Shown here: positions 2,151-9,022 of the stretch, piece after piece | How positions within the stretch are numbered: the first letter of the stretch is position 1 | Layout: each line of letters starts with the position of its first letter | From: a virus | Lineage: Monodnaviria; Loebvirae; Hofneiviricota; Faserviricetes; Tubulavirales; Inoviridae | Virus record (IMG/VR): IMGVR_UViG_2541047961_000001 | DNA length: 10,683 nt | Direction: 5' to 3' (one strand) | Translations under genes and position numbers: made by a program | The notes under the pieces: generated by a model | Seen by the model: the letters and a program-made list of their open reading frames with translations, nothing else | The model's database searches: none | Told to the model about the DNA's origin: nothing

Positions 2151-3395
2151 TCAGTTCAGGTTGTCCCGGAACAGTTCACCGCTCCTCGCGGCGCTGCGGG
2201 GCGTCGCCCTGCTCCGGTCAACCTTTCTGACCTGAAGCATCACCATAATATCAGTCTTGTTGCTTTCACTGGTACGGGAACCGAAGAAGCTCCAGCCGGA
2301 ACTGGCCTTACTGTCTTTCTGTTCAGCAAGGCCACCAAGTAAAATAATATCACCATCTGCAAGGCTGACTTCGGTTGTTACATCACGCTTGATAAGGGTT
2401 GGCGAGTTATTGACGCCGGTTTCAGTGGTCACAAAGTTGGAAAGCTGCTGCTGAATCTTGAGATCCATTGTCCGACTTTTGATTGATGGCGTCACGTTAA
2501 ACAAAACACCGCTGGAACGATATTCAACGGATTGCGTTGTCGTATTGTTATTCACCGTAACACTGCCCAGTACTGGCACATCAGAGCCGACTGAAAAAGA
2601 CGCTGAGGCATTATTTTTTACCCGCAGTCGTGGCGCACTGACAACAGTAAAACGACTGTCGGTTTTCAGCAGATTGAAAATGGCATCAATGGAGCCGGTT
2701 CGAATATTGATAAAATTATCCAGTCCGGCAGCACCAACTGAAATATTGAATTTATCAGACAGAATTTTAGCCGCTAAAAGAATGCCGGAGCCGTCAGACT
2801 GCGAGGTCTGAACCTCAAAAACATAACCAGAAACAACCACTTCATCACTCATCGTATCCAGCGAAGTGACCAGTGTTTTCAGGATGGCGATATCCTCTTT
2901 CGTACCATAATAAACCAGAATATCACCGGTTCGATTGATGTAGTTGCTTGCCCCTGATGAACCTTTTAGCGAATCGTCAGAAATCACGGCTCCACTGTTA
3001 TTGAAGGAGCCTGAAACGTAGCCGCCAAGAATATCAGACAGGTAGGCAACAGAACGGTACTGAGGCGTATAAGTCCATGTATAACGTGGCTTAACCGGCT
3101 CTTTCGGCGTATAGGGCGCGATAAAATCAACACCCTTTTTCGTCCATATTCGAATGTTCATATTGCCAAGATAACGGGTTACAAATTCCCGTTCATCAAT
3201 ATCAGGTGTTAACCTGAATGTAATCATTCGTTCATCATTAACAAGCTGTGGATCTAGCATATACGGGACTTTAAGCACCTCACTGTAAATAAGAGAAATA
3301 GCCTCCGGTAGCTTGACTTTATTTAATTCAAGCTCTGACCCTGCGAAAGCACATGAAGAAAATAGTAGCGTTAATGCGAGTAAAATCTTTTTCAT
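2151..3395 (-). CDS. secretin (filamentous phage pIV-like outer-membrane export channel)
   Basis: 414 aa with an N-terminal signal peptide (MKKILLALTLLFSSCAFA) and a C-terminal secretin-type domain (GSDVPVLG...ILLGGL...). The start overlaps the upstream gene stop (TAATG at 3393-3397). The position after the pI-like gene matches Ff gene IV. Confidence 0.85.
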   Translation of the reverse strand: MKKILLALTLLFSSCAFAGSELELNKVKLPEAISLIYSEVLKVPYMLDPQLVNDERMITFRLTPDIDEREFVTRYLGNMNIRIWTKKGVDFIAPYTPKEPVKPRYTWTYTPQYRSVAYLSDILGGYVSGSFNNSGAVISDDSLKGSSGASNYINRTGDILVYYGTKEDIAILKTLVTSLDTMSDEVVVSGYVFEVQTSQSDGSGILLAAKILSDKFNISVGAAGLDNFINIRTGSIDAIFNLLKTDSRFTVVSAPRLRVKNNASASFSVGSDVPVLGSVTVNNNTTTQSVEYRSSGVLFNVTPSIKSRTMDLKIQQQLSNFVTTETGVNNSPTLIKRDVTTEVSLADGDIILLGGLAEQKDSKASSGWSFFGSRTSESNKTDIMVMLQVRKVDRSRATPRSAARSGELFRDNLN

Positions 3396-4420
3396 TATTT
3401 TTTCCCCGTATAAAGCGTCACACGCTCACCATCAATAATTCCGCTCATCAACATCCCTTTGTAATTAAAACTGGATGCAGGAACGGCACGCAAAACACCG
3501 GCACCGTTAACAAGAATCACAAACGCCCTGCCTTCACTGGTCATTCTCCCTGATATACGCCACTCGGTTGAAAGTGGCGGTTCAGCTGGTTCTGAGGGAG
3601 TATCTGATGCTGGAGTAACAGAGGAAGAACGAAACATGGCCGCATCACGTACATCTGTTGTAGTCAAATCTGGCGAGGGATCGCTTCGGCCAAACGTGCT
3701 GAAAAATGAGTAAATCAGCCAGCCTGACCCGATAAACATCAATGGAAAAAGCACAAGAAAGAACCTGACTTTGCCAGAATTCCAGATGCTCTGGCGTTTA
3801 TCTGTCTGCTTTTCATTACCGTTATTTCCTTCATAGCTTTTGTAAAGTTCAAAAATATCAGGGTTATATTTATTGCGATAACTGGTGACGAGGTTGCTTT
3901 TATAGATTTTGTGGCCTGAATATACGTCAATGCAGTAATGATTATTCAGGCCCAACGCTTTCAGCTTGCGCATCCGGTAAGTTGTTTCTATTTTGTCTTT
4001 CAGAAAGCGAGCAATATTAGAAAGTGACTGATTTACAATAACCAAATCACAGCTAATACCCGTTTCAGGGTGCGTAAAATGACGATGTTCAGCAATAAAT
4101 GATTTCTTCTCAGCCGTCATATCCTTATCGCTACCGAAGATTCGCCATGCTTCATCAATAACAATTAAATCACCAAACTGGCAAAAGCTCCCTTCCCCAC
4201 CTTTAAAAGGAAAGAAATCTGCTTTAAGCACATCATCATTATCCACAACAATAATTTCTCCCGTTGCATCAGGATAACGTTCGGTGATTTTATCTTTTTG
4301 TAAACCATAAATGTTCGTCACAACTCTCCGGCCGCTGGTAAATGCCGGAATAATGACATTGCAAACGGCTTCATAACTTTTTCCTGAGCCGGGTATGCCA
4401 ATATATGCAGAAATAGCCAT
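3395..4420 (-). CDS. Zot/pI-like phage assembly ATPase
   Basis: 341 aa with an N-terminal Walker A P-loop (GIPGSGKS) and a central hydrophobic segment (FFLVLFPLMFIGSGWLIYSFF), as in Zot/gpI family proteins. Lies immediately downstream of the pVI-like gene. Confidence 0.85.
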   Translation of the reverse strand: MAISAYIGIPGSGKSYEAVCNVIIPAFTSGRRVVTNIYGLQKDKITERYPDATGEIIVVDNDDVLKADFFPFKGGEGSFCQFGDLIVIDEAWRIFGSDKDMTAEKKSFIAEHRHFTHPETGISCDLVIVNQSLSNIARFLKDKIETTYRMRKLKALGLNNHYCIDVYSGHKIYKSNLVTSYRNKYNPDIFELYKSYEGNNGNEKQTDKRQSIWNSGKVRFFLVLFPLMFIGSGWLIYSFFSTFGRSDPSPDLTTTDVRDAAMFRSSSVTPASDTPSEPAEPPLSTEWRISGRMTSEGRAFVILVNGAGVLRAVPASSFNYKGMLMSGIIDGERVTLYTGKK

Positions 4421-4423
4421 AAC

Positions 4424-7351: not shown

Positions 7352-8404
7352 TTAATGCCAGTTACTGGCATGTGAAATACGGTTATAATCGAAAATTAAA
7401 CCTTTCTCATAAACCCATGATGGAATTTTGGCTGGTTTGGCTTCAAGAGTACGAACCAACGGAACAACGTTATTAGAATCCGGTGACTCACAATAAAAGT
7501 TAATATCTATTCCGAAAGAAAGTAGTTCTTTACGGTGTCGGTAGAATGTAGGTTTCGGTAACATCTCTTTCATGTTCGCGCCCTGCTTCCACAATAAATA
7601 TGTAGACTGTATTTTTCTTGGGAGATTAATTATTTTTTCATCAGTTAATATGGTATTTTGATTCATTTCTATTCTCCCTACATAGTCAGAGAATAATTTA
7701 TTGGGCGTCTCAATATTCCAGCTATTACCAAGCGTAAGATTCAAATCAATTAATTCAGTTGTTCTTAATGTTAATTCAATGCGTAATTTATCTTTTGACC
7801 AGTCCAGTAAACCAGCTTTAACGAATTCGTCTGCCATCTGGTGCCCTTTTTTGCCAGATGTATGCTCATCATATTTTGAATAAAATTTCAGGCTCCAACG
7901 ACGGGAGTTTTTCCCTAAGTAAACAGTGCCACCTTTACCACAGGCGCGACCGTGGCGAGTTTTAGCTTTAAATTCTGCGGCATATAACCATGCGCGGACA
8001 TTTTCTAATGTTGACAATGAATACATGTAATTGATATCGATGCGCGAGATCTTAAATTGCCCTTCCATGACCTGCCGATAGGATGGTAGATCATGAGGAA
8101 TATGCAGTAATGCCAATATTCTGGCGTAAGCTGTTAACACCAACCCTTGCAAATCGTCGGAACCTATAACAGAGTGACCTTGCAAAAACTTTGATGGATT
8201 ACCGTCAATGTAGAGATGTGTTGCCCTACCTTCACCATCAGATCCAACAGACCTTACTTTCATTGTGGACTCATGCGAACCGCGAACGGTCAACCGTTTT
8301 ACTGTTTCCCACTCCACTGCACCGTCAGCATCGACGCTGACGACACTACCAGCCGGTAACGGTCGGTGTGTGCAAGGCAGGATTCCGGTAAACCAGTCGA
8401 TCAT
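7352..8404 (-). CDS. rolling-circle replication initiation protein (gpII/RstA/CRI family)
   Basis: 350 aa beginning MIDWFTGILP, resembling filamentous phage replication initiator proteins. First gene of the minus-strand operon and divergent from the repressor. Confidence 0.8.
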   Translation of the reverse strand: MIDWFTGILPCTHRPLPAGSVVSVDADGAVEWETVKRLTVRGSHESTMKVRSVGSDGEGRATHLYIDGNPSKFLQGHSVIGSDDLQGLVLTAYARILALLHIPHDLPSYRQVMEGQFKISRIDINYMYSLSTLENVRAWLYAAEFKAKTRHGRACGKGGTVYLGKNSRRWSLKFYSKYDEHTSGKKGHQMADEFVKAGLLDWSKDKLRIELTLRTTELIDLNLTLGNSWNIETPNKLFSDYVGRIEMNQNTILTDEKIINLPRKIQSTYLLWKQGANMKEMLPKPTFYRHRKELLSFGIDINFYCESPDSNNVVPLVRTLEAKPAKIPSWVYEKGLIFDYNRISHASNWH

Positions 8405-8575
8405 AAGTAGTCACACCCATCAAAATATGTGTCAATAGTCATTTGTGAGCAGATTGAATGGTCACAATGTAATATGCTCAGATCTGACAGTCAATACATT
8501 TGCAATGTTTAAATTGTCAGAAATGAGCATCAAATCTAACTATTGAAAAACCACTGTTAAGATGGAGCCAAGTAG
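8405..8575. promoter_or_regulatory. divergent promoter/operator region between Rep and repressor
   Basis: 171-bp AT-rich intergenic region with a repeated motif GTCAATA(GT)CATTTG (8431-8445 and 8490-8502) and a 7-bp inverted repeat TCTGACA/TGTCAGA (8483-8489 and 8515-8521). GGAG Shine-Dalgarno at 8564-8567 for the repressor. Confidence 0.5.
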
Positions 8576-9022
8576 ATGGGCAACAATGAGCATGAAGTTA
8601 TGGCGGACAAACAGAGAGCAGAACGTATCAAAAAGGTAATTCTGGAACACTCGACTTATGAAGAACTGGCCGAGAAGACTGGCATTAGCGTGAGTACGCT
8701 GGTCAGGATAGCGTCCGGCAAAACTGAACCTAAATTCAGTGACATCATTCAGATAGCTAAAATTACGGGTGCAGACTTAAACACCTTAGCTTATGGCTAT
8801 GCTCTTGATGTTAAAGAAGAAGCTACCGAGCGGAAGCTAATCACTTCTGCGGATGGATATACTGATGAAGAAACCACTAACGCACATAATTTCATCGTGT
8901 GGAACATCAGGACACTGGAAAAACAAGATATTCTGGCACTCGCAAGGCAGGTTTCTGCATTAAGTTCATACACTTACAGTACTAAAATGTTTATGAAAAA
9001 AGCGGTGTCTGGAGAAGAGTAA
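8576..9022 (+). CDS. XRE-family HTH transcriptional repressor (RstR-like phage repressor)
   Basis: 148 aa with a helix-turn-helix segment (YEELAEKTGISVSTLVRIASGKTEP...IAKITGADLNTLAYG). Divergent from the Rep gene as in CTXphi rstR/rstA. An alternative start ATG lies at 8600. Confidence 0.8.
   Translation: MGNNEHEVMADKQRAERIKKVILEHSTYEELAEKTGISVSTLVRIASGKTEPKFSDIIQIAKITGADLNTLAYGYALDVKEEATERKLITSADGYTDEETTNAHNFIVWNIRTLEKQDILALARQVSALSSYTYSTKMFMKKAVSGEE

Follow-up and report, generated by a model that had tools for sequence, protein, structure and literature searches.

A filamentous prophage of the CUS-1/YpfΦ type at the dif site of an Escherichia coli chromosome

We report here on the contents of a stretch of 10,683 nucleotides of DNA (hereafter, the window), deposited as the IMG/VR inovirus record IMGVR_UViG_2541047961_000001, and on the filamentous prophage that it carries. 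The window is DNA of the Escherichia coli chromosome, from the replication terminus region; it is matched best by complete E. coli genomes (99.4-100% identity), and strain D8 is 100% identical to it over the aligned 95%, the DNA in that strain being flanked by an alpha/beta-hydrolase gene and hipBA. Read from left to right, the window holds host DNA, an intact dif site, two small open reading frames (ORFs), a long minus-strand block of secretion, virion and replication genes, a divergently transcribed repressor gene and an accessory region that runs to the window end. We conclude, with a confidence of about 95%, that this is one intact copy of the known filamentous (Inoviridae) prophage CUS-1 of E. 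coli, which in Yersinia pestis is YpfΦ (= CUS-2), inserted at chromosomal dif adjoining hipBA. An initial annotation, made from the sequence alone, had flagged positions 2151-9022 as an undescribed mosaic inovirus; the ORFs that it listed were recovered where it had placed them (ORF listing, Pfam).

The identification is carried by comparison with prophage copies in two species. Positions 1265-9102 of the window are 99.58% identical at the nucleotide level to a YpfΦ prophage of Y. pestis (32 mismatches and 1 gap over 7839 bp), and positions 1101-9544 are 99.37% identical, without a gap, to the chromosomal prophage of E. coli UTI89 (8444 bp). The Y. pestis contig was recovered through a search for relatives of the replication protein (Rep), and differs from the window in that it carries the prophage as tandem copies with a period of 8742 bp. 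All 11 proteins shared with YpfΦ are full length, at 97.6-100% amino acid identity, and six of them (the secretin, Rep, G5P, the coat protein, the pVI-like protein and the repressor) are 100% identical. UTI89, which we take to be of the O18:K1:H7 clone that was the source of the CUS-1 description, has its prophage at the same insertion point between dif and hipA. Its gene set also agrees, starting with the two small ORFs beside attR, continuing with secretin, Zot, PuvA, coat, G5P, Rep and repressor, and ending with an ORF of 140 amino acids (aa). The CUS-1 prophage of E. coli O18:K1:H7 is said to have been reported by Gonzalez et al. in 2002. In our comparisons CUS-1 is represented by the UTI89 chromosome, and our account of CUS-1 follows the review of Derbise and Carniel.

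Gene content and gene order agree gene for gene with the published YpfΦ/CUS-1 map (PMC4266046). That map runs from two attL-side ORFs and an RstR-like repressor through replication genes YPO2274-75, morphogenesis genes YPO2276-78 and secretion genes YPO2279-80 to two ORFs of unknown function beside attR, and CUS-1 and YpfΦ are given there as 99% identical over 7.1 kb (PMC4266046). The comparison with CUS-1 and YpfΦ, which the initial annotation itself had proposed, thus returns 99.4-99.6% nucleotide identity and the same genes. A megablast of positions 2000-9200 against the phage collection gave no match; the collection apparently lacks stand-alone entries for CUS-1 and YpfΦ, and the blank is therefore no evidence of novelty. 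The element is an ordinary, known one, with its secretion genes and its CTX-type Xer integration already published, and the difference of the window copy from classical CUS-1 is confined to an accessory slot between origin and attP.

The gene for the phage secretin lies at 2151..3395 on the minus strand and encodes a pIV-like protein of 414 aa (GspD2, or YPO2280 in YpfΦ), identical over its full amino acid sequence to the proteins of YpfΦ and UTI89, that would form the export channel in the outer membrane. Its Pfam Secretin domain (E 1.3e-24) occupies residues 243-372, with a score of 87 bits where the cutoff is 27.5. Identity to M13 pIV is 27% over the C-terminal part of the protein, from residue 146 on, and identity to the pIV proteins of Ff and I2-2 within the secretin domain is 27-30%; the protein also matches solved chains of GspD, RcpA and PilQ as well as the f1 pIV structure 7OFH (E 1e-10 for 7OFH). 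The N-terminus, MKKILLALTLLFSSCAFA, reads as a signal peptide by sequence. The presence of a secretin of the phage's own, as first proposed for this gene, is borne out by the Pfam, M13 pIV and 7OFH matches, and the phage has no need to borrow one from its host, unlike CTXφ, which has no secretin of its own and uses the host EpsD.

RefSeq names the same 414-aa protein 'type II secretion system protein GspD', and its best PDB matches by E-value are GspD chains, which could be read to mean that it is a component of the host type II secretion system and not a phage export channel. We regard this as hardly tenable, since the gene sits inside the phage with its start codon overlapping the zot stop codon, no other gsp genes are nearby, and the secretin accompanies the phage into Y. 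pestis and into a circular 9.6-kb form. The length of 414 aa is also that of the 7OFH pIV chain and near that of M13 pIV (426 aa), and it is the C-terminal part, residue 146 onward, that the alignments to M13 pIV and 7OFH span. The phage-borne secretin has been discussed in the literature as 'GspD2', a likely partner of Zot in the export of YpfΦ (PMC10354491).

Upstream of the secretin gene, at 3395..4420 on the minus strand, lies the gene for an assembly ATPase of the Zot/pI family (Pfam Zot, E 2e-26), the equivalent of YPO2279. Its stop codon overlaps the secretin start in a TAATG at 3393-3397 on the minus strand, as the initial annotation had it. The protein aligns with CTXφ Zot at 22% identity over 301 aa (E 3e-12), versus E 0.02 for M13 pI. 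As an inner-membrane ATPase, it would be expected to extrude the filament through the phage's own secretin without lysis.

The structural genes follow, all on the minus strand. A small membrane protein with the DUF2523 domain (Pfam, E 1e-20) stands in the pVI position at 4424..4711. The pIII position, at 4724..6436, is taken by the adsorption protein, called PuvA in CUS-1 (puvA in PMC4266046), with a full-length match to phrog_3942 and 99.6% amino acid identity to YpfΦ; its start codon is ambiguous, giving 570, about 546 or 520 aa (RefSeq has 520 aa, with the start at 6286). The major coat protein, of 77 aa with a signal peptide, is encoded at 6501..6734; it is a virion structural protein by phrog_2186 (E 4e-29), and its Pfam Phage_Coat_B match is weak and below threshold. 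Twelve nucleotides past the coat gene, at 6467..6489, a consensus scan found a GC hairpin followed by a T run, which may be a terminator by its likeness to the one after Ff gene VIII. This hairpin overlaps an unannotated 40-aa hydrophobic ORF between the coat and pIII-like genes, in the region 6367-6489 (minus strand).

A membrane protein of 83 aa in the pVII/pIX position is encoded at 6769..7020 (ORF listing; phrog_3679; annotated as 'membrane protein' in UTI89) and is presumed to be a minor coat or assembly protein. Together with the coat protein, the pIII-like PuvA and the pVI-like protein, it would build the filament. The coat, pIII-like and pVI-like proteins and Zot gave no tblastn match to I2-2 or M13 at E <= 1e-3, and similarity of the structural proteins to CTXφ was not detectable. 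In Y. pestis, knock-outs of YPO2274, YPO2277 and YPO2279 abolished virion production (PMC4266046). For the junction at 7018-7025, between this gene and the next, the proposed tight packing holds, with a 2-nt gap from stop to start codon; the sequence there reads TGATTATG and not TAATTATG as first given.

The replication genes complete the minus-strand block. A single-stranded DNA-binding protein of the gene V type is encoded at 7023..7340 (Pfam Putative_G5P, E 1e-52), with 42% identity to the gene V product of I2-2, and would coat the single-stranded phage DNA. The rolling-circle replication initiator Rep, at 7352..8404, belongs to the pII family, with Pfam domains Phage_CRI (E 1e-73, 248 bits) and G2P_X_C (E 4e-34, 118 bits), and is 57.8% identical to I2-2 pII and 23% identical to M13 pII. 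Within it an in-frame Met247 (ATG at 7666-7664), with GGGAGA before the ATG, is a probable pX-like start. No similarity to RstA, the Rep of CTXφ, was detectable by BLASTP (E = 1.1); RstA itself matches Rep_trans (PF02486), a family against which the Rep of the window scores 16.7 bits, below the cutoff.

A candidate (+)-strand origin was located at 9041..9080 on the minus strand, beyond the repressor gene. It is a hairpin, GTGCAGT-N9-ACTGCAC, within 41 nt that are 90% identical to positions 2666-2706 of the I2-2 intergenic region (E 5e-9). An origin at this place would explain why YpfΦ conservation runs 80 bp beyond the repressor gene. The motif occurs once per phage copy in the related loci L002, L012, L013 (strain TUM14759) and L019 (strain APEC E19057) and is also present in L003-L006; it was not found in L018 (strain ETEC-2264). 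The nick-site sequence of Ff was not found in the window, and the candidate came from the I2-2 comparison instead. Rep would nick the DNA at this site and drive rolling-circle synthesis of the (+) strand.

Two contigs that bear relatives of Rep (96% and 86% amino acid identity; L004 and L006) are labelled as metagenome-assembled genomes of Aerococcus and Candidatus Nanosynbacter. An enterobacterial inovirus is hardly to be expected in such hosts, and the labels probably reflect binning contamination.

The divergently transcribed helix-turn-helix (HTH) repressor expected from the initial annotation is present at 8576..9022 on the plus strand. It is a protein of the XRE/cI type (Pfam HTH_3; phrog_3557, transcriptional regulator), the equivalent of YPO2273, RstR-like in position and 26% identical to RstR in the HTH region. 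A repeat search of the divergent regulatory region between it and rep (8405..8575) found an imperfect palindrome of 27 nt (8474-8530) and a TGTCAGAAATGAGCA-like motif that occurs three times, which are candidate repressor operators. The repressor would control the promoter of a single long operon. Promoter-like sites were called at 8494-8466 and 8560-8533; the scan total of 23 compares with 23.1 in shuffled sequence, and because the count is no higher than that, the calls carry no weight. No LexA box (CTGT-N8-ACAG) was found in the regulatory region, and matches across the window are no more frequent than expected by chance, so that an SOS link in the style of CTXφ is not supported by the sequence.

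Taken as a whole, the gene order is Ff-like throughout and the replication module is I2-2-like, and what recalls CTXφ is the divergent repressor together with the route of integration through a hairpin attP and Xer. With I2-2, IKe and the Ff phages (M13, f1, fd) the element shares the order II(X)-V-small membrane protein (VII/IX position)-VIII-III-VI-I-IV, a Rep of the pII family, a phage-encoded secretin of the pIV type and, with I2-2, the 41-nt motif of the intergenic region. Those coliphages, in contrast, are not temperate, have no repressor gene in their annotated genomes and lack a dif-type attP; their episomal cycle, without repressor or integration, is not matched by an element that sits at dif with an HTH repressor. 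With CTXφ it shares a repressor that is divergent and beside the replication gene, an assembly ATPase of the Zot family, accessory genes at the genome ends and integration without an integrase, in which XerCD recombines a hairpin attP with dif; it differs in its replication protein, the RstA of CTXφ being a Rep_trans protein dissimilar to the Rep found here.

The initial annotation had divided the element into an Ff-type morphogenesis block and a CTXφ-type Rep/repressor block. The Ff-like gene order and the CTX-like repressor arrangement stand, and the division is partly inverted in that Rep is pII/I2-2-like, not RstA-like, and the closer match of Zot is CTXφ Zot, not M13 pI. That the element is an undescribed mosaic of two such blocks is very improbable: its Ff-resembling gene order with a secretin of its own, its divergent repressor with dif integration and the blank search of the phage collection would all suit such a mosaic, but the YpfΦ and UTI89 CUS-1 prophages are almost identical to it and encode the same proteins, and both the phage and its secretin are already in the literature (PMC4266046, PMC10354491). 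Being near-identical to CUS-1/YpfΦ, it is a known phage with the same gene content, an outcome that the initial annotation had itself named as refuting its reading. The word 'mosaic' is fair for the lineage, because modular exchange occurs in this phage group; this particular combination is the one that has been described.

One such exchange is seen at the same dif/hipA site in strain APEC E19057 (2158-9908), where an undescribed relative shares Rep (97% amino acid identity), G5P (98%), the 140-aa ORF (99%) and a small attR-side ORF (83%). It differs in an unrelated morphogenesis block (G7P-2, coat, attachment protein, DUF5455, Zot), with a secretin that is 27% and a repressor that is 40% identical to those of the window, and is a clear module swap.

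The functional element exceeds positions 2151-9022, extending from dif at 1252 to an attL-type junction that lies about 75-100 bp past the window end, as seen in D8. The attR side is an intact chromosomal dif, GGTGCGCATAATGTATATTATGTTAAAT, at 1252..1279 on the minus strand, which marks the prophage 3' end and matches 28 of 28 positions (0 such matches expected by chance). Integration at dif, which the initial annotation had also proposed, is confirmed by this exact 28-bp E. coli site, outside the positions that it had flagged. Homology to YpfΦ stops at 1265, inside dif, which is expected if the phage attP shares GGTGCGCATAATGT with dif. Next to dif, 1280..1419 (minus strand) is the non-coding 3' end of the phage genome, conserved in YpfΦ and in a circular 9565-bp E. 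coli record, and it abuts the attP hairpin in the circular form.

The other junction in D8 reads GGTGCGCATAA-TGTACGACTCG-TTATGTTGAAA and is followed by about 90 bp identical to YpfΦ; in the circular 9565-bp record the phage ends are joined through the same junction sequence. The attP junction has the form …CCATTGGTGCGCATAATGT[A/G]CGACTCGTTATGTTGAAAAGG…, and when the junction sequence of D8, YpfΦ and the circular form is folded as single-stranded DNA it gives a hairpin of -31.2 kcal/mol (z = -8.3). In this hairpin, GGTGCGCATAA...TTATGTTGAAA is paired with an inverted partner, so that two dif-like half-sites face each other around a bulged centre; the site lies just beyond the window. The attP hairpin of TUM14759 has a loop unlike the D8/YpfΦ version, with the stem kept. 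No recombinase domain was found in any ORF of 1280-10683 (ORF listing, Pfam).

The attP hairpin sequence and the integration at dif are the same in YpfΦ, for which a forked-hairpin attP arrangement, as for the attP(+) of CTXφ, has been proposed (PMC4266046), and CUS-1 and YpfΦ have been classed as Xer-dependent integrative mobile elements exploiting Xer (IMEX) of the CTX type (PMC4246890). On this route, the element would integrate without a phage integrase, its (+) single-stranded DNA folding up so that two dif-like half-sites in inverted orientation form the attP, a forked hairpin that host XerC/XerD would recombine with dif. Such an event would restore dif perfectly at the 3' end and leave the opposite end with a hybrid, non-functional site. 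Catalysis by XerC only, and irreversible integration, would follow from what is published for such elements (PMC4246890).

Between dif and the secretin gene lie two small minus-strand ORFs of unknown function. That at 1420..1668 (82 aa, or 65 aa in RefSeq) belongs to phrog_6642, is 97.6% identical to its YpfΦ counterpart and is by position the equivalent of YPO2281 on the published map (PMC4266046). The other, a basic protein of 82 aa at 1814..2062, is by position the equivalent of YPO2280a (ORF listing, RefSeq, YpfΦ comparison) and has no Pfam or PHROG family. On the host side of dif, positions 1-1251 include the end of one alpha/beta-hydrolase gene (1-453, minus strand) and, at 522-1144 on the plus strand, overlapping ORFs in two frames that are apparently a second, frameshifted alpha/beta-hydrolase gene. 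This left flank varies by strain, the matches of other E. coli genomes starting at differing points from 591 to 1265.

No evidence contradicting the identification as CUS-1/YpfΦ was found. Four points weigh against it or limit it: the identity is drawn from the Y. pestis and UTI89 prophages together with a published description, rather than from a deposited CUS-1 reference; the origin, operators, pX-like start and terminator are features that we infer; for the attL junction, which falls past the end of the window, the sequence is that of a different strain, D8; and if the prophage is present as a single copy in its genome, the CTX-type model predicts no virion release from the chromosome, so that this copy may be silent despite its intact genes.

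The last point can be taken further, to a CUS-1 that is here a locked-in, non-productive single prophage, irreversibly integrated and lacking the tandem origins needed for virion DNA, with its genes expressed and no phage released. In the window the origin motif occurs once and dif is followed directly by host sequence, and D8 has the element in one place only; CTX-type elements need rolling-circle replication from tandem copies (PMC4246890), and tandem copies or RS1-like arrays of Rep and repressor genes are found in other strains. On the other hand, the window stops short of attL and a second copy could follow downstream, several near-identical genomes have two places, all prophage genes are intact, and YpfΦ is also maintained extrachromosomally (PMC4266046). 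We consider a non-productive copy possible but rather doubtful.

In the wider population of 5426 complete E. coli genomes, 139 contain the core of the element (2151-9022), the median number of places per genome being 2, and some strains have a different repressor allele (40% amino acid identity). Strain TUM14759 carries a circular phage copy of 9565 bp with attP reconstituted, deposited as an 'untypable plasmid' (NZ_CP128883.1), which is most likely the replicative form. For YpfΦ, virions have been shown, and the phage is also kept extrachromosomally (PMC4266046). In ETEC-2264, a CUS-1-like prophage whose repressor allele differs is followed downstream, at 10405-13254 of its locus, by at least two tandem units of 1.83 kb (a truncated G5P gene, Rep and repressor). 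These units are similar in make-up to the RS1 satellite of CTXφ and could be the source of a second origin for the synthesis of virion DNA.

The accessory region on the attL side, on the plus strand throughout, begins with a conserved gene at 9122..9544 for a multi-pass membrane protein of 140 aa and unknown function (phrog_4174), which is 96% identical in UTI89 and 99% identical in APEC E19057 and occurs in about 128 E. coli genomes. The departure from classical CUS-1 runs from 9545 to the window end, outside the positions first flagged, and consists of two variable cargo genes. The first (9612..10406) encodes a protein of 264 aa with a helical N-terminal part and a nuclease fold of the DpnII/MboI-type PD-(D/E)XK kind (Pfam PF18742, E 7e-59), which also matches the PADLOC defence-associated profiles Aga_Helical-REase (E 1e-34) and PDC-S35. 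The second (10417..10683) encodes an 88-aa protein of the DUF6953 family (Pfam, E 2e-28), and its ORF ends with the window.

The nuclease-fold gene is absent from UTI89 CUS-1 and from YpfΦ. UTI89 has a single ORF of 369 aa after the 140-aa ORF, as against the 264-aa and 88-aa ORFs here, and in YpfΦ all three are replaced by YPO2271 and YPO2272 (87 and 135 aa). When the contents of the slot were compared between the window (9545-10683) and the loci L012 (10895-12111) and L002 (1202-1894), each lineage had unrelated genes; the slot genes of Y. pestis, UTI89, TUM14759, APEC E19057 and the window are all unrelated. The alternative cargo (the 369-aa ORF of UTI89, YPO2271/2272 and the TUM14759 ORF) gave no significant Pfam or PADLOC match. 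The variant with nuclease and DUF6953 was found in 24 of the 5426 genomes.

The family of the nuclease-fold protein is large, with more than 3600 proteins of about 262 aa that are 52-60% identical to it across phyla. Its homologues are solitary genes whose neighbours are unrelated, a tailed prophage and the flank of a transposase being among the settings, and the gene looks like an independently mobile single gene. A conserved two-gene system of nuclease and DUF6953 was considered and rejected, since the homologues of Pectobacterium, Citrobacter and Magnetospirillum stand alone with unrelated genes around them; the small ORFs found upstream of the homologue bear no relation to the 140-aa ORF. 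As a tentative reading, which we think unlikely as it stands, the stretch from the origin to attP (9103 to about 10750) might be an exchangeable cargo slot of CUS-1/YpfΦ-type inoviruses that here delivers a stand-alone nuclease with DUF6953 alongside, and the nuclease could be an anti-phage defence or superinfection-exclusion gene.

Published work on the phage goes back to 2002, and a link with fitness or virulence has been drawn in both E. coli K1 and Y. pestis. Its re-identification here raises no new question beyond that of the swappable cargo slot and of any benefit of its nuclease-fold gene to the host. For the reading of this and related records, the functional limits of the element, set by dif, origin, cargo and attP, reach well past positions 2151-9022, the 414-aa protein that goes by 'type II secretion system protein GspD' in RefSeq is a phage export channel, and the replication module of this phage groups with I2-2/Ff and not with CTXφ.

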